Of a DNA stretch of 64,000 nucleotides, positions 3,249-11,642 are shown one piece after another. The stretch spans positions 160,970-224,969 of the forward strand of contig JABHZY010000024.1 in assembly GCA_018656065.1 (NCBI GenBank), read 5' to 3'. The notes beneath the pieces were generated by a model. The model did not search any database and had not been told where the DNA came from. It saw only the letters and a list, made by a program, of their open reading frames with translations. The stretch's first letter is position 1. The number at the start of each line of letters is the position of its first letter. This DNA comes from Candidatus Komeilibacteria bacterium. GTDB lineage: Bacteria; Patescibacteriota; Patescibacteriia; UBA1558; GWA2-36-10. The position numbers were made by a program, and so were the translations under genes.

Positions 3249-3269
3249 AAAAAAACACCCCTAAGGATG
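3249..3269 (-). terminator. intrinsic terminator directly after the orphaned tRNA-Thr 3' half
   Basis: The minus strand reads CAUCC-UUA-GGGUG-like hairpin followed by a U-run (plus strand aaaaaaacacccctaaggatg). Confidence 0.4.
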
Positions 3270-3273
3270 AAAA

Positions 3274-3318
3274 TGGAGCCGTCACGCAGACTTGAACTGC
3301 GGACCCCTTCCTTACCAT
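3274..3318 (-). pseudogene. 3' half of a disrupted host tRNA-Thr(GGU) (attR side)
   Basis: The reverse complement reads ATGGTAA-GGAAG-GGGTC-CGCAG-TTCAAGT-CTGCG-TGACGGC-T-CCA. Its anticodon 3' stem and acceptor 3' strand are exactly complementary to the 5' half at 11332-11368. Confidence 0.8.
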
Positions 3319-3335
3319 CAATCAGCTCAAGTATG

Positions 3336-3377
3336 TTCTCTTATTATTTATCTAACCTTAGATAAATAATAAGAGAA
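3336..3377. repeat. perfect 19-bp inverted repeat with a 4-nt loop, just inside the attR end
   Basis: The arms are ttctcttattatttatcta and tagataaataataagagaa, separated by acct. No U-run follows on either strand, so it is not a classic terminator. Confidence 0.8.
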
Positions 3378-3445
3378 TTACTGAATATAATGATATTTTA
3401 CAGATGAGCGCTTTATCTCCTAAATACTGCCATTAAAATATATCA

Positions 3446-4402
3446 CTATTCTATCAAATCATCAACTCGAATTAGCTCACAATCCCCCTTCATAACTCCT
3501 GTAGGTAAGGATCTTGTATATTTAGCCGTCATACGTGGGTCTTTATGTCCTAATAACTGCTGTAATTTATAATAATTATATTTACTAACATTCAAATAAT
3601 TAACAGCAAAAGTATGCCTAAATTGATGAAGGTGAAATTTCACACCTGATTTTTTAACAATTTGGTCTTTTGTATGCTTCAAGCCATAATTTGTAAATTT
3701 ACTTCCTCTACCAGAAACCCATAGATATTCTGATTTATCTTCTATTATTTTTCTTTCCTTCAAATAATCCCGTAAAGCTACTTTTAATTTATTATTTATG
3801 GGCACCACTCTTAATCGTCTAGACTTAGAAGTCTCTGGGTTTATAGTCAATTCATTATTATTAAAATCTAGACTATCTAATTTTAGACCTAATAATTCTC
3901 CTGATCTTATACCAGTATATAGAAAAGTATTAATTATGGCGAAGTTTCTTTTTCTAATAAAACTATTACGCCAATCTATATGAAAATTAATAGATGACAT
4001 AATACGCTCCACTTCTTTTTTTCTTAAATACTTCCTATCTTCATATTGAACTACTGGATATTCTAGCTCTTCGCTATCGAATGGATTAGAATCAATATGA
4101 TTATGAGCTTTTAACCATTTGAAGAAACGACTTAATCCACTCCAATGTGTTGCAACTGTACTTTTCTTAATACTTTTTACTACCTTATCCCGCCCTATAG
4201 TTCTTTCTCTTTTATCTAACCAACGAAAAAAATGATTAATCATCTTAGAATCTATCATTACTAATGTAATATCGGGGAAACACTGTATTAGTAGCTTAAA
4301 AGTAGTCTCATAGCCTTTTATAGTTGTTGGCGCTAACTTTTCCATATAAGTTAATTGATCTATAAATTCTTTATGTAAATTTACTAGTTTATTATTATCC
4401 AT
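3446..4402 (-). CDS. tyrosine recombinase / phage-type integrase
   Basis: 318 aa. It has a SAM-like N-terminal domain. The catalytic signature is TGIRSGELLGL ... HQFRHTFAVNYL ... LLGHKDPRMTAKYT (R..HxxR..Y). Confidence 0.85.
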   Translation of the reverse strand: MDNNKLVNLHKEFIDQLTYMEKLAPTTIKGYETTFKLLIQCFPDITLVMIDSKMINHFFRWLDKRERTIGRDKVVKSIKKSTVATHWSGLSRFFKWLKAHNHIDSNPFDSEELEYPVVQYEDRKYLRKKEVERIMSSINFHIDWRNSFIRKRNFAIINTFLYTGIRSGELLGLKLDSLDFNNNELTINPETSKSRRLRVVPINNKLKVALRDYLKERKIIEDKSEYLWVSGRGSKFTNYGLKHTKDQIVKKSGVKFHLHQFRHTFAVNYLNVSKYNYYKLQQLLGHKDPRMTAKYTRSLPTGVMKGDCELIRVDDLIE

Positions 4403-5175
4403 AATTATTTATTATATTATTAAAACCATGCTTATATGCATAGTTTCTAAATAAAAATACCGATACAGGTAAATAGTATAAAACTACGCATATAGCGTAT
4501 TCTATACTCCCTGTTCGGTTTCATTCTAACTAATAATCTTTTCCCCTTTTGGGTACTCCCAATTTAATTAGTTCTAACAAATGGGGGCCTTTAATTCCAT
4601 ATATTATGGATGCAAGTGGCCAAAAATATCACGAACACCAAGAGTGTTTATTCAATTGTATTAATTATACCATACATAAACATCTTTATGCAATTATGTA
4701 AGCATTTCATATAATTAAATTAGTAATCAATATAGTGTGTTAAATGTAATTCTATAAGTGTTATTTTGAATGCCATCTATAATATATATACCCCTCTGTA
4801 CACAAAACACTATGTATTTCCGTACAGTGTGTGAAACACTGAGTGCATGGGAGAGACTAACCCTCTGCCTCACAGACATGAATACAATAATAACGAGAAA
4901 GCGAGAAAAGGTAGTGGGGGTATCTGAGAATCGTGAACGTTTTATTATGACTTCACCCTCTATCATAAAAGTTAATATAATTTGAAAATACGGGCATTAT
5001 TTGCTACAATTGAGATACAATTTAATGGGCCTAAACTCTATATTTATAGAGCATGGCTTAAAATCATAACGCATATTGACCCCGTCATTCAGGGCATGCG
5101 TTATGTTATGCAGGGAAACTTGTATATAGGCTTAGGCCTTCCTGGTGGCGGGTTTTGTGTTATTAATAAAAAAAT

Positions 5176-5805
5176 ATGCCAGTATTTGATGCATCAGTTT
5201 TGAATCCAAAAATTAGAGAAATGCAAACCTATTATGATCCAGAAAGTGGTTGTCAGGTATATAATGATAGGCAGGCTTTTGAATCTTGTAAACAGACTTA
5301 TTATCTAAAAATACAAACTGAACAAAATAAAGAATATAATAACCCAATTGATAATTATGAAGTTGAAACACCCCATCAAAACCTTGAAGATATTAATTAT
5401 GAATTATTATCTATTAAAAAAGAAATAAATGATATTAAAACCGATACCTATAATAAAGGATCCGATTACTTAAATTTAACTTACTTCTTTGCCGGTATTT
5501 TATTAGTATTAATAGTATTTATTTTTATAAAACTATTTAGAAAATATAAAGTTAGAAAAAAAGATCATTTAATTGATAAAATTATAAAGAAACAAGAAAA
5601 AAAATGGTGGCAACTCAAATATATGAGTAAAAATGATTATGGTAAAATAGCTATAATTGGATTAGTCCTAGCTTTTATAAAAACTGGCATCCCTGTACCT
5701 CTAAACCCATTATTAAATTTCTTAGTGAATGTAATAATAACCTTTGGATTATTTGCTGGAATTATGTGGATTATAGAAAAAAGTAAAAGAAACAAAAAAG
5801 AATAA
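5176..5805 (+). CDS. hypothetical membrane protein (island cargo)
   Basis: 209-aa ORF with about 3 hydrophobic helices (FFAGILLVLIVFIFI, IAIIGLVLAFI, VIITFGLFAGIMWII). I recognise no family. Confidence 0.5.
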   Translation: MPVFDASVLNPKIREMQTYYDPESGCQVYNDRQAFESCKQTYYLKIQTEQNKEYNNPIDNYEVETPHQNLEDINYELLSIKKEINDIKTDTYNKGSDYLNLTYFFAGILLVLIVFIFIKLFRKYKVRKKDHLIDKIIKKQEKKWWQLKYMSKNDYGKIAIIGLVLAFIKTGIPVPLNPLLNFLVNVIITFGLFAGIMWIIEKSKRNKKE

Positions 5806-5816
5806 ATTATGTCTAT

Positions 5817-6338
5817 ATGATTATAGAAAATCAATTTATCATTCCTTTTGTTAAAGAAGTTAAGCTTCTAATGAAAGATAAGGAAAATGAATATTACAAA
5901 GATATACCAAAAATAATTATACTAATGACACTTTGGGGTAAAATGGGCTTACATAAAACAGTTAGACGTGTTCATATCGATGATTTTAATAATGATTTCT
6001 ATAATATATGTTATGAACTTACAAGATATGGTTTAACTATCGGCATATGTTTAATGAAAAAAGTTGATAAAAAAAATATAAAAATTATACCAACATGCTA
6101 TGGTATATCATCTCATATTGGCGTAAAAGAATTACCTCACTTCCCATCTATGATTGATAAAATAATTAATCTTGAAGTAGATAAGGTCACTAAAAAATAC
6201 TTTGATGAAAGTCCCCACCGCTATAAAGATTTTACACAAAACCTTATAAAAGAAAATATATTTAGATATTATACTAATAGAGCTTTCCAAATAGCTATAA
6301 ATTCTAATCTTTATGTCACTCTCCCAAAAACTAATTAA
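5817..6338 (+). CDS. hypothetical protein (island cargo)
   Basis: 173-aa ORF, co-directional with and 11 nt after the previous gene. I recognise no family. Confidence 0.45.
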   Translation: MIIENQFIIPFVKEVKLLMKDKENEYYKDIPKIIILMTLWGKMGLHKTVRRVHIDDFNNDFYNICYELTRYGLTIGICLMKKVDKKNIKIIPTCYGISSHIGVKELPHFPSMIDKIINLEVDKVTKKYFDESPHRYKDFTQNLIKENIFRYYTNRAFQIAINSNLYVTLPKTN

Positions 6339-6471
6339 AAAATATCAAAAACTTCATAAAAGAAAATTTGGTGAAAATATAAGTGAAGAAGAATCTGAAG
6401 AAGCATTGAATAATTTAGCTGATTTTTTTCAACTTTTGCTTGATGTAGATAAAAAGAATAATACGAAATAA
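6313..6471 (+). CDS. possible small acidic protein (52 aa), below the ORF-track cutoff
   Basis: My own translation gives MSLSQKLIKKYQKLHKRKFGENISEEESEEALNNLADFFQLLLDVDKKNNTK with a stop at 6469-6471. It overlaps the end of the previous ORF. Confidence 0.3.
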   Translation: MSLSQKLIKKYQKLHKRKFGENISEEESEEALNNLADFFQLLLDVDKKNNTK

Positions 6472-6498
6472 TAATTTAGAAAAAACGACTACTTATGC

Positions 6499-6527
6499 TT
6501 GATTTTATTAGCTTTTTATAGTATACT
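6499..6527 (+). promoter_or_regulatory. sigma70-type promoter of the RT leader
   Basis: TTGATT (6499-6504), a 17-nt spacer, then TATACT (6522-6527). Confidence 0.55.
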
Positions 6528-6533
6528 AGACGT

Positions 6534-6827
6534 ACTTATGGAGAATTGTTCATAAGGAATTATGTTGATAAGGTTCGTCAACTTTATGGCTATCGCCAAT
6601 ACCTGTATATATTCAGGTATGAGAATTAGCAATAAAGTGACTAGATGAACTATTAGATGCCTCAAGAGCTCAAGGAGCTTGGCTGATAATAAGGACTTTA
6701 TACCTCTAAACATAATATAACATAAGTTATATTCCTCCTGGCCGCGTCTAAGCGGTAAGTTACGTTTGGACCTTAATACCACACGAGAAGCCAGGATTCT
6801 CGGTATTAAGGCGTGTATCACAATAAA
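6534..6827 (+). ncRNA. structured ~290-nt leader / candidate RT-associated ncRNA
   Basis: No plausible sense ORF. Hairpins lie at 6535-6556 (cttatg/cataag) and 6599-6620 (atacctg/caggtat). A compound hairpin at 6771-6811 pairs ccttaatacc with ggtattaagg around an inner gagaa/ttctc stem. The leader looks more GC-rich than its flanks by eye. Confidence 0.5.
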
Positions 6828-8228
6828 ATGAATCTACAAAAACTCAAAAGAGAATGGTTGAAATTAGAAAATGATAAAGTACAAGAAAAAAGAAAATACA
6901 AACAATTCAACTATAGAGTAAAAAATATAAGTGAAAAATTGGCTCAAAAAATATGGGAACCAGCATTTGTTGCTGGTTATTCTTTTTATCCATTTATTAA
7001 ATACTATGACATACAACGAAAGTGTAAAAGAGACCCAAAAACTTCAAAAATATATATATCTAAAAAAGAAAGACCTATTTGTCTAACTGGTCATAAGGAA
7101 TCAATTATAGTTTCTTGGTACGCCCACTTACTGAGTCATATATATGAAATATGGATGAAAAAATATAACTTAGAAAATGAGGTGATAGCTTATAGAAGTA
7201 TAGAGGGTAAATCAAGTTATAATTTTGCATCTGATGTTTTTAATTTCTGTAAAAAACAAAAAGAATCTGTAATATTAACTTATGATATAAAAGGCTTTTT
7301 TGATAATCTAGATCATAAAATAATAAAAAAACTCTGGGTAAAATTATTAAAAGAGGTGGATATTGAAAATTCACACAATGGATTACCAAAAGATCATTAT
7401 GCTGTTTATAAATATATGACCTCATACTCTTTTGTAAATATAAATGATGTTTACAGTGCCTTGGGTTTGAAAAAGAAAGATCTAAGAGCTATGTTAAGAT
7501 TATGTTCTGAAGATGACTTCCATCAAAAGATCCAAAGAAAAGGAAAAGATAAAAGTTTAATACAATCAAATAAACCATCTTTAGGAAAAAGGGGTTTTGG
7601 TATTCCACAAGGAGCTGCAATTAGTGCTGTATTGTCCAATATGTATATGATAGACTTTGATCGTTTAGTATCTACTAATGTCAAGAAAATAGGAGGTTTA
7701 TATCGCAGATATAGCGATGATATTGTTGTAGTCGTACCTACAGAACACTACAAAAAAACTAACCAGTCTATAAATAATATTATCTCAAAAATTCTTTTAG
7801 AGCTTGAGCCTACTAAAACTACTATCACTAAAGTAAAGCTGAATAAAGATAATAATTGTAGTTGTTATGACCTAAATGGTAAAAATGTATCTGTGCCTTA
7901 CCTTGGTGTAGAATGGGATGGTAAAAAAATACTACTGCGTGGTAAAACTCTAGCAAGGTACCACAGGAGAATGTCTAAAGCTGTATATACTGTAGCTAAG
8001 AATGCACAGCTTAGAGGACAAAAATATATTCCTAAACGTCGTCTGTATGAAGCATTTACTGGCTATGGAAAGAGTAACTTTCAATCCTATGTATTGAGAG
8101 CGGGAAAAGGGATAAAGTCAAAAGAACTAATAAGACAAATCTCTAAACATAAAGCTATGCAACACCTAAAGAAGAAAATTAAAAAAACTATATCTAAATT
8201 AAAAAACGAACCAAAAAAATCATCTTGA
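6828..8228 (+). CDS. standalone reverse transcriptase (retron / Abi / DRT-UG-like, clade not assignable by eye)
   Basis: RT motifs occur in order: DIKGFFDNLDH, GIPQGAAISAVLSNMYM, YRRYSDDIVVVV (YxDD), LELEPTKTTITKV, VPYLGVEWDG. The track start at 6813 is a GTG; the ATG at 6828 (MNLQKLK) is more likely. Confidence 0.85.
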   Translation: MNLQKLKREWLKLENDKVQEKRKYKQFNYRVKNISEKLAQKIWEPAFVAGYSFYPFIKYYDIQRKCKRDPKTSKIYISKKERPICLTGHKESIIVSWYAHLLSHIYEIWMKKYNLENEVIAYRSIEGKSSYNFASDVFNFCKKQKESVILTYDIKGFFDNLDHKIIKKLWVKLLKEVDIENSHNGLPKDHYAVYKYMTSYSFVNINDVYSALGLKKKDLRAMLRLCSEDDFHQKIQRKGKDKSLIQSNKPSLGKRGFGIPQGAAISAVLSNMYMIDFDRLVSTNVKKIGGLYRRYSDDIVVVVPTEHYKKTNQSINNIISKILLELEPTKTTITKVKLNKDNNCSCYDLNGKNVSVPYLGVEWDGKKILLRGKTLARYHRRMSKAVYTVAKNAQLRGQKYIPKRRLYEAFTGYGKSNFQSYVLRAGKGIKSKELIRQISKHKAMQHLKKKIKKTISKLKNEPKKSS

Positions 8229-8246
8229 ACTAGATGATTTTTTTAT

Positions 8247-9452
8247 TTATTCTCTATTATAATTACCATCGTCATCAAAATTCAAAGATCTACTAATTCC
8301 ACTAGCATTCCATATAATATCAAATACTGATTGAAATTTTTCTGCCGGATTGAAATCTTCTCTATCTATAATAACTGCTGGCAATCTTAAATCATTAGTA
8401 ATTATAGGTAAAGCATCTCTAAAAGGAAAAGGACCCGGTATAGAGACCTTAAAACCCTTAATACCAAATAATGTTAAATAAACATAAAATGGTGGCTTAA
8501 AAGATAACTCCACTAAAAGTTCTACCATACTAGCAACATACTTCATAACACTTGACTCTAACCAAACCATTGGTATTATTGGAGTTGGTTCTCCTTCTGT
8601 TTCTCTAGCCATTAAACCAGAGGCCTCTACGGCCTCTATTTTCCCATCTCTGTATAACTGAGTATATGTTCGTATTGTATCATTATCGTCATTAGAAGCT
8701 GAGTAAGCCGCTACTCCTTCCATATTAATTCTATGACTCCAGCCAGAATTATAGAATGGCCTGAATTTATCGTTACCACCCTCACTTAAAGATAAAATAG
8801 TTGCATTACTTAATTTATGCTCTGTAGTAAAAGCAGATAATGGTAATATATGTATACTGAGAAAATTAGAATTATTTGAAATTATCAATGGTGTGTCGCT
8901 AGCTTGTATATCAAAAACTCTTTTATTTACAAACCCTTTAACATTATCAATCAAATTGCTAGTTTTTATAAACGAAGTTCTCAATTCACCGACGTCCATG
9001 GGATATTTACCATTTGAATTTCTTCTATAGAATTTATCATGGCTCTCAAGAGTAACTCTATGAGGCGCGTCTAAACTTGGATCTATCCTTATGACTAAAA
9101 TAAATTTATTATTATTGGCTATCACTCCTATATCATAATTCATTCTTGGTGCTATAGCTTGTCTCAATAAATTTTCTAATCTTGATTTTTCTGAATCAAT
9201 ATCACCAACCTCAAAACCAATATCTTCTGAAACTATTTCCTGTCCAATACTGCTTTCATCAACTCCAAAAATAATATAACCACCCTCTGTATTAGCAAAT
9301 GATGATACATCAGCTAAAAATTCTCTCTTATTACTATGAGATGTGCCAGGTAGTATAGCCTTAAATTCTAAGGTCTTTTTTTCTGTAACATTAGATTCGA
9401 CAATGGCTTTTATATCAGCCACTTCTATTTGATCAATGTTTTTATCTATCAT
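8247..9452 (-). CDS. Schlafen/AlbA_2-like (divergent AAA) domain protein with an unknown C-terminal domain
   Basis: 401 aa. The N-terminus KTLEFKAILPG...FLADVSSFANTEGGYIIFGVDE matches the AlbA_2 signature as I remember it. Confidence 0.6.
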   Translation of the reverse strand: MIDKNIDQIEVADIKAIVESNVTEKKTLEFKAILPGTSHSNKREFLADVSSFANTEGGYIIFGVDESSIGQEIVSEDIGFEVGDIDSEKSRLENLLRQAIAPRMNYDIGVIANNNKFILVIRIDPSLDAPHRVTLESHDKFYRRNSNGKYPMDVGELRTSFIKTSNLIDNVKGFVNKRVFDIQASDTPLIISNNSNFLSIHILPLSAFTTEHKLSNATILSLSEGGNDKFRPFYNSGWSHRINMEGVAAYSASNDDNDTIRTYTQLYRDGKIEAVEASGLMARETEGEPTPIIPMVWLESSVMKYVASMVELLVELSFKPPFYVYLTLFGIKGFKVSIPGPFPFRDALPIITNDLRLPAVIIDREDFNPAEKFQSVFDIIWNASGISRSLNFDDDGNYNRE

Positions 9453-9461
9453 AAGATTTAA

Positions 9462-10181
9462 TTAGCTTATTGAATCTATAATTCTAAGAAGTTGATTTGA
9501 TGTATGAATTATGTCAGCAGCTTCTTTCGGGTCAAGAAGTTCAACATCTCTATGACTTGATGGATTCTTAAATGTACCTATTGCACCAGTAAACAATTCC
9601 ATTCTAGCTACTTTTTCACCGGGAGCAGCCTCTTGATCTGTTAATATACCATCAGTTGGACTAAATGCTTTCCTCATTAAAGATACTCCAATGTCACTAT
9701 TACTTAAATTAGTTTTATTACGTACTCTTATCTCTACCTCCTTGAATGCTTGAAATATAGCCGTATCATAATCACCTCTAATAAAAGCTTGTTTAACTTT
9801 TCTTACCAAAATTGGGTCTAAACCATCCGAAGGTAAAAGCTCGCCTTTTCTATAGGTTTCAAAATCCTGAGAATCTAATATCTCCTGCCCTCTTGGTGTA
9901 ATGAAAGTCCAATCTATATTTCCAGGTTGTGGAGCTATAAATAATTCTCTTTCAAGCCATCGCCACGCTACTATAAATCTTTTTAAGATTTTTTCCCTAA
10001 GAAGATTATCCTGCCCTGCCCAACTAACAAAATTCTGATCTGTGCCAATAGTAAAATTATGCATATTAAAATTTTGCATACCTGAAACACTTAGATGCTT
10101 CAAAATAACAGGAGCTAACTCCTCTGGTTCCATATCTAATATAGTTTCTATAGGAGGATATATTTCTTCATAAATTGACAT
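9462..10181 (-). CDS. TIGR02391 (Hypoth_Ymh)-like protein
   Basis: 239 aa. The C-terminal half reads GDYDTAIFQAFKEVEIRVRN...LMRKAFSP...GEKVARMELFTGAIGTFKNPSSHRDVELLDPKEAADIIHTSNQLLRIID. This fits the family pattern as I remember it. Confidence 0.6.
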   Translation of the reverse strand: MSIYEEIYPPIETILDMEPEELAPVILKHLSVSGMQNFNMHNFTIGTDQNFVSWAGQDNLLREKILKRFIVAWRWLERELFIAPQPGNIDWTFITPRGQEILDSQDFETYRKGELLPSDGLDPILVRKVKQAFIRGDYDTAIFQAFKEVEIRVRNKTNLSNSDIGVSLMRKAFSPTDGILTDQEAAPGEKVARMELFTGAIGTFKNPSSHRDVELLDPKEAADIIHTSNQLLRIIDSIS

Positions 10182-10236
10182 ACTTGCATTATACAGAAAT
10201 GCAAAACAAACGGCAAATATCCTATCAAAAGCAGTG

Positions 10237-11121
10237 TTATAGAGGATTTTTAATAATCTGCTGTCTTAAATGTTCGCTACTAGCTGCTAAATATATAGTA
10301 GTTGTCTTGATGTCGTTATGCCCCAAAATTCTAGATAAACTATAAATATCACATCCTCCTTCAAGCATAAGCGTAGCAAAAGTATGCCTAAGTCTATGAA
10401 CATTGAAACTAAGGCCCGAGACATCTTTTATCTTAGCAACCAAACGTCTCAGGCCTATTTCTTTGAAACCCATATTACGGTTAAGAGAAGTAAAAAATTC
10501 TGGACAAGTTTTATCTAATCTAGATCTTTCCTGGGAGTATTTTTGTAGTATTGAAACTAATTTATGATTAATTGGAATTATCCTATCTTTATTACCCTTG
10601 CCCTGTCTAACAAAAAGCGTTAAATTCTCTAAATCAATATCAGTATATTTAAGATTTAACAATTCTTTACGCCTAAGGCCCGTAAAAAGAAACGTGGCAA
10701 ATATAGCATGATTTCTATACCTAAGAAATTTGTACTTATATGGATAATTATAAACTACCTCTAATAACCTCTGAGATTCTTGTTTGGTTAATTTTGGTGG
10801 AAGTCTCTTCTCTATCTTAGGAGTCTCAATATCCTGAGCTAAATTAGCCTCCATATGCCCCTGCTCTACGCACCAACGGAAAAATACTACCAATGTCTTG
10901 TGATAGCATACAAACGTGTTAGACGACCAATTTTTAAGCGTACGACCATTAAAAAAGAAGCCCTTGGTATTCTCATCATTTATTTGATCTATATCCTCTA
11001 TCTCAGCATATTTAGTAAATAAAGATACTACGCGTCTATAGCGTTTAATAGTATCATCTGCATATCCTCTGATATATTGAGAATAATCACAAAACTCTTG
11101 AACAAGTAAGTTAATTTTCAT
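10237..11121 (-). CDS. tyrosine recombinase / integrase (XerC/D-like)
   Basis: 294 aa. The catalytic signature is TGLRRKELLNL ... HRLRHTFATLML ... LGHNDIKTTTIYL. It lies next to the island-borne tRNA and attL. Confidence 0.85.
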   Translation of the reverse strand: MKINLLVQEFCDYSQYIRGYADDTIKRYRRVVSLFTKYAEIEDIDQINDENTKGFFFNGRTLKNWSSNTFVCYHKTLVVFFRWCVEQGHMEANLAQDIETPKIEKRLPPKLTKQESQRLLEVVYNYPYKYKFLRYRNHAIFATFLFTGLRRKELLNLKYTDIDLENLTLFVRQGKGNKDRIIPINHKLVSILQKYSQERSRLDKTCPEFFTSLNRNMGFKEIGLRRLVAKIKDVSGLSFNVHRLRHTFATLMLEGGCDIYSLSRILGHNDIKTTTIYLAASSEHLRQQIIKNPL

Positions 11122-11155
11122 AAATAAAAAACACTGCTTAATTAATGCAGTATTC

Positions 11156-11231
11156 TGGAGCCGTCATGCGGACTCGAACCGCAGACCCCCACCTTACCAT
11201 GGTGGTGCTCTACCAACTGAGCTATAACGGC
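11156..11231 (-). tRNA. tRNA-Thr(GGU), island-borne intact copy
   Basis: The reverse complement folds by hand. Acceptor is GCCGUUA/UGACGGC. D arm is GCUC-AGUUGGUA-GAGC. Anticodon arm is CCACC-AUGGUAA-GGUGG. T arm is UGCGG-UUCGAGU-CCGCA. It ends UCCA. Confidence 0.85.
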
Positions 11232-11331
11232 GTGATTTACTCCGTGATCTGTTTAGGGAGAAAACAGACCGCTATTTTAACAAAGCTCCCAATTTTATTA
11301 ACTCAATTTAACTTTTACACAGACCTGTTTA

Positions 11332-11368
11332 TTACCATGGAAGTGCTCTACCGCTGAGCTATGACGGC
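11332..11368 (-). pseudogene. 5' half of the disrupted host tRNA-Thr(GGU) (attL side)
   Basis: The reverse complement reads GCCGTCA-TA-GCTC-AGCGGTA-GAGC-A-CTTCC-ATGGTAA and then diverges into TAAACAGG. It has no 3' half nearby. Confidence 0.8.
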
Positions 11369-11378
11369 TTATTTTGGA

Positions 11379-11642
11379 TTAATTTTTCTTTGCCAGTTCT
11401 TCTTTCTTCTCTTTCTTCCAACCCTTAATTTGGGCTTCACGTTTCATAGCTTTTGATATAGAATCGAATTCTTCTGAATACACAATCTTAACTGGTCGTC
11501 TTTGCCTAGTATACTTAGCTCCATCGCCAGAATTATGTTTGTTTTCACGTTGTTTTAAATCTGCACAATATCCAGCATACAAAGAATTATCTGAACACCT
11601 TGCAAGATAAAAATGATATTTTTTTACTTTGTCTTCTTTCAT
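11379..11642 (-). CDS. GIY-YIG nuclease superfamily protein (UPF0213-like)
   Basis: 87 aa. YHFYLARCSDNSLYAGYCADLKQRENKHN carries the GIY..YxG motif, followed by a conserved KREAQIKGW tail. Confidence 0.7.
   Translation of the reverse strand: MKEDKVKKYHFYLARCSDNSLYAGYCADLKQRENKHNSGDGAKYTRQRRPVKIVYSEEFDSISKAMKREAQIKGWKKEKKEELAKKN

Follow-up and report, generated by a model that had tools for sequence, protein, structure and literature searches.

An island of 8,020 bp was identified in a 64,000-nucleotide stretch of a Candidatus Komeilibacteria contig (JABHZY010000024.1), referred to here as the window. The island is inserted into the anticodon loop of the host tRNA-Thr(GGU) gene and leaves that gene in two halves, with exact junctions on both sides. 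It carries an intact tRNA-Thr(GGU) gene of its own and a pair of tyrosine recombinases, and it recurs in a family of related loci. The best explanation of the whole locus, which we hold at a probability of about 85%, is that positions 3319-11331 together with one copy of ATGGTAA form an integrative island that brings a replacement for the tRNA gene it breaks. The principle has already been described for actinobacteriophages; by comparison with those phages, the island appears to work like tRNA-dependent lysogeny and to be a new form of it.

The 5' half of the split gene lies on the minus strand at the attL junction (11332-11368; reverse complement GCCGTCATAGCTCAGCGGTAGAGCACTTCCATGGTAA). It contains the acceptor 5' strand, the D arm, the 5' strand of the anticodon stem (CTTCC) and the core ATGGTAA, which runs from 11338 to 11332. 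The 3' half lies on the same strand at the attR junction (3274-3318; reverse complement ATGGTAAGGAAGGGGTCCGCAGTTCAAGTCTGCGTGACGGCTCCA) and consists of the core (3318 to 3312), the stem strand GGAAG, the T arm, the acceptor 3' strand and CCA. Both fragments, as quoted in the initial annotation of this DNA, match the letters of the window. When joined via a single ATGGTAA, they were called by ARAGORN as one 75-nt tRNA-Thr(GGU) with zero mismatches in the acceptor, anticodon and T stems, and no tRNA was called on either junction or fragment separately. Since the bases bordering ATGGTAA differ between the junctions (C/G on the left, T/G on the right), this sequence is all that the junctions share, and the repeat is exactly 7 bp. 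It corresponds to the entire anticodon loop, positions 32-38. Beyond the 3' half, at 3256-3269 (minus strand), the terminator scan detected a hairpin and T-run resembling a terminator, which is conserved in two relatives with an uninterrupted gene (L201 and L216). The window 5' half shares 95% identity with the corresponding part of the uninterrupted L216 gene, and the 3' half matches the uninterrupted L154 and L127 genes at 100% over 46 nt.

A scan of metagenome contigs for the uninterrupted anticodon arm matched at least 120 contigs, and among the matches listed, three (L201, L216 and L154) belong to organisms closely related to that of the window. L201 and the window are colinear between 15356 and 11332, after which L201 jumps straight to 3318-3245; its DNA identity to the window is 69%, with protein identities of 81% for FBA and 86% for GIY-YIG. 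In L216, the order is the end of the GIY-YIG gene, the uninterrupted tRNA-Thr(GGU) and the CAP-domain gene, while L154 shows TPR, tRNA-Tyr, GIY-YIG and the uninterrupted tRNA-Thr(GGU). The uninterrupted gene that had been anticipated between the GIY-YIG and CAP genes is therefore present there in L216, and directly after GIY-YIG in L201 and L154. The tRNAs of these three empty sites are one or two bases from the joined halves and score 66-67 bits against the Rfam tRNA model, which agrees with the earlier view that the fragments rebuild one canonical tRNA. Farther relatives have the order FBA, TPR and uninterrupted tRNA-Thr(GGU), with the same anticodon stem. No relative with both fragments and no element was seen; the relatives show the uninterrupted gene instead. 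Since this tRNA is whole in them at the corresponding locus, the 8,020-bp segment is an insertion, flanked by a duplication of 7 bp, and the ancestral state is the uninterrupted, split-type gene.

These empty sites also bear on a reversed history, in which the intact tRNA-Thr(GGU) of the island would be ancestral and the fragments a decayed duplicate or unrelated debris. Beyond the bare presence of three tRNA-like pieces, nothing speaks for such a history, and we regard it as extremely improbable. The empty sites of L201, L216 and L154 refute it: they hold the split-type gene (CTTCC/GGAAG) at the locus, with no second tRNA-Thr(GGU) nearby, whereas the copy with the CCACC/GGTGG stem always accompanies Int2, one of the island recombinases. 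Furthermore, the fragments are exactly complementary and abut the 7-bp repeat.

The split arrangement was also followed in the population of the window organism. Contigs were looked up by an identical GIY-YIG protein (10 of 23 viewed) and by an identical CAP protein (10 of 16 viewed). Every viewed contig long enough to tell carries the same island genes beside the flank, in many independent assemblies, which confirms that the split arrangement is not an assembly artefact. One contig of the same species (L004, 10440-10472) breaks off within the island tRNA, where it carries the T arm of a co-occurring species of the L021 type. It was considered as a strain variant and set aside, being probably an assembly graph cross-over between related tRNAs.

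The complete tRNA-Thr(GGU) of the island is located at 11156-11231 (minus strand), with CCA encoded, and was identified by ARAGORN and by the Rfam tRNA model (64.7 bits). It begins 100 nt past the 5'-half junction and differs from the joined gene at 10 positions and one indel, including compensatory changes in the anticodon stem (CCACC/GGTGG vs CTTCC/GGAAG) and the T stem. The intact and clearly different copy about 100 bp from attL is thus as first described. ARAGORN found this one complete tRNA-Thr(GGU) gene in the window. The spacer between the junction and the tRNA contains a promoter-like sequence, TTAATA-16-(TG)TAAAAT, at 11301-11274; transcription of the island tRNA could start both from this putative site and from the promoter of the host tRNA, which lies ahead of the 5' half. 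A hairpin plus T-run (actgc-attaattaa-gcagt-gtttttt; 11122-11155, minus strand) separates the tRNA from Int2 and is conserved in relatives; the terminator scan did not call it, its loop being 9 nt.

The perfect preservation of both halves could also suit a functional split tRNA, with each half transcribed on its own before the two are joined or annealed in trans, as happens in Nanoarchaeum. Their flanks, TAAACAGGTC and GAGCTGATTG, could moreover pair at 8 of 10 positions in RNA (hand count), but such pairing is the expected by-product of inverted recombinase half-sites. Unlike Nanoarchaeum-type split tRNAs, the window has an intact gene with the same anticodon 100 nt away, and its halves are separated by 8 kb that hold genes on either strand. 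The bulge-helix-bulge splicing endonuclease that serves such joining is not known from bacteria, which also counts against this explanation, and we give it a negligible chance. A group I intron linking the halves, either 8 kb long or trans-spliced, was considered and dropped as well.

The insertion with its replacement tRNA is accompanied by two tyrosine recombinases at opposite ends of the island, as the initial annotation had stated; both are Xer-like. Int2 (10237-11121, minus strand, 294 aa) matches PF00589 with an E value of 2.6e-30 and 105.9 bits, and Int1 (3446-4402, minus strand, 318 aa) with 1e-31 and 110.4 bits, the gathering score being 27.1. The two proteins are 29% identical, and both keep the R/HxxR/Y catalytic motifs (TGIRSGE, HQFRHT and TAKY in Int1; TGLRRKE, HRLRHT and TTIY in Int2). 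In size, in the combination of a SAM-like N-terminal domain with a catalytic domain and in lacking an arm-binding domain, they resemble XerC/XerD pairs, and as in those pairs, two paralogues could each bind one half-site around a central region of 6-8 bp. Unlike XerC/XerD, Int1 and Int2 are island-borne, flank attP and move between phyla. Both proteins score far below the NCBIfam Xer cut-offs (for Int2, XerC 169.8 against 335, XerD 164.9 against 330, XerA 189.4 against 220), and the genes lie inside an insertion absent from close relatives, so that an assignment to chromosomal XerC/XerD does not hold. More than 3000 Int2 homologues, 58-84% identical, were found across phyla. No match to Int2 was obtained in plasmid and phage collections (50,697 phage records, E <= 1e-30). 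A single viral-contig match to ATGGTAATAAACAGGTC (L105) lies inside a 527-aa open reading frame (ORF), on a contig with no tRNA gene, and was discarded as probably due to chance.

Read on the minus strand from the GIY-YIG side, the island consists of the 5' half, the core, TAAACAGGTC, the spacer, the tRNA-Thr(GGU), the hairpin with the T-run, Int2, a Ymh protein and a Schlafen protein. It continues with an other-strand block that holds a reverse transcriptase (RT), a folded stretch, three ORFs and a LOOT RNA, followed by Int1, a long hairpin, GAGCTGATTG, the core and the 3' half. From this order, the core of the attachment site on the circular element (attP) can be deduced as GAGCTGATTG-ATGGTAA-TAAACAGGTC, an imperfect inverted repeat (7/10) around the 7-bp centre, with predicted junctions TTGAGCTGATTG-ATGGTAA-TAAACAGGTCTG for attP and GTAGAGCACTTCC-ATGGTAA-GGAAGGGGTCC for the chromosomal site (attB). 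The attB corresponds to the anticodon arm, GAGCACTTCC-ATGGTAA-GGAAGGGGTC, with arms GAGCA-CTTCC and GGAAG-GGGTC. Its symmetry comes from the stem, and the outer GAGC and GGTC are common to attP.

The right core arm of attP, TAAACAGGTC, follows the core directly (11322-11331, minus strand). In relatives, this motif occurs at +8 from the core in L035, L045, L067 and L099, and after the 5' half in L020 and L093. The spacer, or P' arm, extends over 90 nt from there to the island tRNA (11232-11321, minus strand), and holds a second AAACAGATC (11246-11254) and an inverted GGTCTGTTT (11262-11270), which together form a 9-7-9 palindrome. At the other end, the P arm (3319-3445, minus strand) comprises the left core arm GAGCTGATTG (3319-3328) and a hairpin with a 17-bp stem (3336-3377). 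Seven of the 10 bases of the left arm agree with the reverse complement of the right arm. AAACAGGTC-like sites, all in direct orientation, recur at -96, +8 and +84/+95 relative to the core start in those members that have both ends; ordered sites of this kind were observed in the attP regions of L035, L045, L067, L099, L038, L076 and L086, and in the window at 11246-11330. Of these, +8 and +84 are present in the window attP, which also holds an inverted copy. The attP core is located between the end of Int1 and the island tRNA, with more AAACAGRTC sites nearby. This arrangement makes attP an ordered multi-site for recombinases without an arm-binding domain.

Contiguous, un-recombined modules with the order Int1, attP-like site, tRNA-Thr(GGU) and Int2 were observed in Ruegeria atlantica (L086, 8637-10876) and in Myxococcota (L024/L028 and L061). 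The L086 module contains all three AAACAGGTC sites. Both Myxococcota copies lie on one chromosome, at 971 kb and 3.76 Mb, and belong to repeats of at least 7.5 kb that are about 97% identical. The window island, once circular, would resemble these modules. An intron-bearing version was seen in L037, a contig filed under the archaeon Ca. Methanoperedens that may be mis-binned. Additionally, many loci of Bacteroidota and Ignavibacteria have Int1 directly beside Int2, without an intervening tRNA.

The family survey covered 80 species-level loci from GTDB genomes, found via Int2 homologues, and 83 loci were examined in the census. They span Patescibacteria, Bacteroidota, Ignavibacteria, Myxococcota, Ruegeria, Simkania and the one contig filed under Ca. 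Methanoperedens. A tRNA-Thr(GGU) lies upstream of the Int2 homologue in most members, and about 35 of the 83 loci share the full layout of a host tRNA-Thr(GGU) 5' half, ATGGTAA or TTGGTAA, usually TAAACAGGTC, a spacer of 100-180 nt, a full tRNA-Thr(GGU) and Int2. In 10 loci (the window, L035, L038, L045, L067, L073, L076, L089, L099 and L102), a matching 3' half was found 5.6-11.3 kb downstream, shortly after an Int1 homologue. The detection of halves demanded that the joined halves pass ARAGORN, so that decayed halves would escape this count. In all 10, the repeat is the anticodon loop (ATGGTAA or TTGGTAA in eight, 11 bp in L076 and 17 bp in L089), which supports the proposed 7-bp crossover core. 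Within each locus, the acceptor and anticodon strands of one half pair with those of the other, and the halves differ by host (acceptors GCCAATG, GCTCGGG, GCCCAGA and others); they are unlike the island's own tRNA, which most often begins GCCGTTG.

Two syntenic loci, L020 and L021, show the same arrangement at the same chromosomal place with wholly different cargo; their 3' halves were not within the 10 kb searched. Relative to the window, L025 has identities of 84% for Int2 and 62% for FBA, L021 has 66% and 80%, and the empty site L201 has no Int2 and an FBA identity of 81%. These discordant host and element identities, together with the unrelated cargo, indicate repeated horizontal insertion rather than one old event. 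The Int2 identity tree is star-like at 60-67% identity and does not separate a single origin of the splitting mode from a repeated one. A stand-alone 87-aa GIY-YIG protein (11379-11642, minus strand) sits between tRNA-Tyr and the tRNA-Thr target; its gene is present in L021, L201 and L154 and missing from L020 and L025, and this small gene is thus itself variable at the hotspot.

The family also includes classical members, in which a long repeat runs from the anticodon loop to the 3' end of the gene, namely L036, L064 and L101 at tRNA-Lys(UUU) and L068 at tRNA-Ala(GGC). The contrast that had been drawn with textbook elements that regenerate the tRNA is thus seen within the family, as the window island has no attP 3' segment. 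In L072, at about position 9762, a split tRNA-Phe(GAA) 5' half is followed by TAAACAGGTC. Stacked and tandem insertions were found as well: L043 (9361-9958) has two stacked tRNA-Thr(GGU) 5' halves before an intron-bearing gene, and L066 (109-352 and 6690-6874) is a tandem array, in which Int1 is followed by another attP-like junction and another full tRNA. Both indicate that intron-less island tRNAs can themselves be hit by further elements.

In the mechanism that we propose, the island, whose genes lie on the minus-strand side of the locus, would enter tRNA-Thr(GGU) by site-specific recombination of the tyrosine-recombinase type, and strand exchange would take place across a 7-bp overlap equal to the anticodon loop, as the biochemistry of these enzymes suggests. 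Since attP has no tRNA 3' segment, integration would leave two dead host halves, and the island tRNA-Thr(GGU), 100 nt inside, would take over the decoding of ACC and ACU. The host would then depend on the island unless excision were precise, which would make the island and its defence cargo more stable. Both halves are perfect, so that an exact excision would rebuild the host gene; their condition suggests either that the insertion is recent or that excision still occurs. Int1 and Int2 would flank attP in the circle and land at opposite ends after integration, and they probably act jointly, one per half-site, with the extra AAACAGGTC sites building a higher-order complex, as neither protein has an arm-binding domain.

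The recombinases may share the work differently. Int2 alone might integrate and excise the element, leaving Int1 for a separate task such as the resolution of multimers or tandem arrays, or action at the 9-7-9 palindrome. Many loci have Int2 and no Int1 within 10 kb, the conservation of Int2 (58-84%) is far above that of Int1 (33-47%), and the spacer does offer a separate palindromic site. The two-recombinase pair is, on the other side, conserved across the family, with Int1 homologues (33-47% identity) beside Int2 in most loci. Int1 adjoins the far junction wherever the 3' half is in range and flanks attP in the un-recombined modules, and the dissimilar arms of the attP core suit two proteins. 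We therefore consider a role for Int2 alone rather doubtful and favour joint action.

Several observations weigh against the integrative reading as a whole. The action of Int1 and Int2 at the core is a deduction from sequence, and no recombination directionality factor was recognised. The P arm of the window has no canonical -96 AAACAGGTC site, its place being taken by the hairpin with the 17-bp stem. The status of the island tRNA-Thr(GGU) as the sole copy covers the 64-kb window; a single tRNA-Thr(GGU) per genome would be expected from the biology of Patescibacteria. No empty site or excised circle of the window's own population was found among the viewed same-flank contigs, and this copy of the island may be fixed or immobile. 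Moreover, L025 (9640-10010), the closest Int2 relative and syntenic after tRNA-Tyr, has the tRNA-Thr(GGU)-Int2 pair with no 5' half upstream and neither a 3' half nor Int1 within 10 kb. L025 is a possible end state in which the island tRNA is now a permanent host gene, and such islands can evidently become permanent.

Such permanence could already apply to the window: the insertion would have happened as described, the island tRNA would have become the host's, and the recombinases would be relics or serve another role. The presence of the island in every viewed same-population contig long enough to tell, the P arm without its -96 site and the state of L025 are all in line with this. The halves are perfect, and both recombinase ORFs are intact with their catalytic motifs; furthermore, the closest host-gene relatives are polymorphic for presence and absence, and the trees of element and host disagree. 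On these grounds, a fossil copy appears unlikely, and an integrative island that may still be mobile, with a replacement tRNA that is presumably expressed and essential, is preferred.

At least 21 island-borne tRNA-Thr(GGU) genes contain an insert of 181-234 nt at position 36/37. They include L020 (9682-9960), L043 (9682-9958) and L067 (about 5521-5800), as well as L030, L034, L037, L040, L042, L046, L052, L059, L060, L069, L070, L074, L076, L079, L080, L097, L098 and L100, and some lie outside Patescibacteria. The island tRNA of the window has no such intron. The inserts share a U at -1, a terminal G and conserved R/S-like cores (CGAACGACTGACAAGGG and AAGATACAGTCTA), and a 21-sequence alignment revealed a compensatory, variable P8-like hairpin between the cores. 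No match to the Rfam model RF00028 (Intron_gpI) was obtained on the inserts, even at E <= 10 on a 296-nt stretch. Divergent group I introns missed by RF00028 have been reported at 36/37 of Patescibacteria tRNA-Thr(GGU) (PMC13011429), in a study that mentions integrases 0 times and judges horizontal transfer of tRNA introns to be limited. The inserts agree with those introns in the tRNA, the position and the negative RF00028 result; on the basis of their motifs, terminal bases and hairpin and of this literature, they were accepted as probable group I introns. Unlike in that report, the intron-bearing genes ride here on an integrative element. The insert position cuts the 7-bp core into ATGGT and AA, and the intron might shield the island tRNA against further insertion.

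The remaining genes of the island are cargo. A TIGR02391 family protein (Hypoth_Ymh; 9462-10181, minus strand) matches PF09509 with an E value of 6e-25 and TIGR02391 with 61.8 bits, and next to it a Schlafen AlbA_2 domain protein is encoded at 8247-9452 (minus strand; PF04326, E 2.7e-18). A DRT2-like RT is encoded at 6813-8228 (plus strand), with a PADLOC Drt2 E value of 1.9e-118; its NCBIfam Drt2 score of 373.9 bits falls just under the cut-off of 390. With the start at about 6828 chosen by gene callers, the protein has 466 aa. Immediately upstream, a structured non-coding stretch of 341 nt (6472-6812, plus strand) has a minimum free energy of -95.5 kcal/mol (z = -4.6, 100 shuffles). It matched no family in an Rfam search upstream of the RT; from its fold and position, it is a candidate for the DRT2 non-coding RNA. 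Three further ORFs (209, 173 and 52 aa; 5176-6471, plus strand), of unknown function, gave no Pfam, NCBIfam or PADLOC match, and their sole match in other family loci is a weak one of the 52-aa ORF to L025 (E 4.7e-05). A tblastn search of all the window island proteins against the other loci found no convincing cargo homologue. With its DRT2-like RT, Schlafen/AlbA_2 and Ymh proteins, the cargo looks like anti-phage defence.

A LOOT RNA (Rfam RF03000) was identified at 5028-5141 (plus strand), with 71.7 bits against a gathering score of 46.4. Rfam matches were also obtained in L097 (2157-2278) and L069 (3762-3887), and a covariance model of our own, built from three LOOT hits, detected LOOT-like RNAs in 18 of 82 sources, in Thr-type and Lys-type islands alike. 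Besides the window, L097 and L069, the sources are L060, L053, L103, L027, L076, L067, L093, L036, L081, L099, L066, L065, L101, L102 and L033. Every LOOT-like RNA lies downstream of Int2, and upstream of Int1 where the Int1 gene is in range; no protein gene consistently adjoins it. The LOOT RNA may thus be a backbone component of these elements.

A broader reading, which we advance tentatively and rate at somewhat less than even odds, joins these features into one cross-phylum family of mini-integrative elements, each with the Int pair, a structured attP, a LOOT RNA and a private tRNA-Thr(GGU). By destroying the host tRNA-Thr(GGU), such elements would make themselves indispensable. They would hit each other's tRNAs, a competition suggested by the stacked halves of L043 and the tandem array of L066, and the intron at 36/37 would be an element-borne device that splits the 7-bp core against use as attB.

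The closest described system is the tRNA-dependent lysogeny of the actinobacteriophages Fionnbharth (K4), LeBron (L1), Gaia (X) and BrutonGaster (Guerrero-Bustamante & Hatfull 2024; PMC10865867), a study that also cites prophage Lj965 of Lactobacillus johnsonii. In these phages, a core of 8-17 bp does not reconstruct the tRNA, and genetics showed that a phage tRNA of the same isotype is required; sister phages with related integrases use long cores and rebuild the tRNA classically. The island is alike in that attB overlaps a host tRNA gene, the window junctions falling exactly at the anticodon loop in comparison with the empty L201, L216 and L154. Its core of 7 bp is likewise too short to rebuild the tRNA at either junction, the element supplies its own tRNA (11156-11231), and classical and replacement modes coexist in one family. 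The differences are also clear. The window island is 8 kb long with no virion, lysis or repressor genes, and no phage families were recognised among its ORFs. The phage integrase is a single lambda-like protein with an N-terminal arm-binding domain (PMC10865867), whereas the island has two Xer-like proteins of about 300 aa. The phages target tRNA-Lys, tRNA-Ile2 or tRNA-Leu in Actinobacteria, and the island tRNA-Thr(GGU) in Patescibacteria. The island tRNA, unlike that of the phages, sits immediately beside attP, and it is probably essential, where the phage tRNA was shown to be so by genetics.

Classical genomic islands at the anticodon-loop sublocation of tRNA genes, as catalogued by Islander/TIGER (PMC4383910), share the anticodon-loop crossover, the stem serving as inverted arms, the integrase beside the tRNA and a displaced 3' fragment at the far end. 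They differ in restoring the gene from an attP 3' segment, with a long direct repeat. In the window, the 5' half runs into TAAACAGGTCTG and no tRNA 3' half follows; the repeat is 7 bp, a 5' fragment is left as well, and a separate full gene is supplied.

These results extend the breaking and replacement of a host tRNA beyond a few actinobacteriophages to small, non-phage defence islands and to Patescibacteria. Island finders that seek a regenerated tRNA and a long 3' repeat will overlook such islands, and tRNA annotation reports the foreign tRNA as the host's. The family links three items that had stood without context, namely a conserved pair of Xer-like recombinases, the orphan LOOT RNA and the divergent group I introns of tRNA-Thr(GGU), for which masking of the recombination core is the suggested role. 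A short anticodon-arm site used with two small recombinases could also serve organisms without genetics. Patescibacteria are expected to have minimal tRNA sets, in which the loss of a single tRNA gene should be lethal, and an island that has replaced such a gene would thus be hard to lose.

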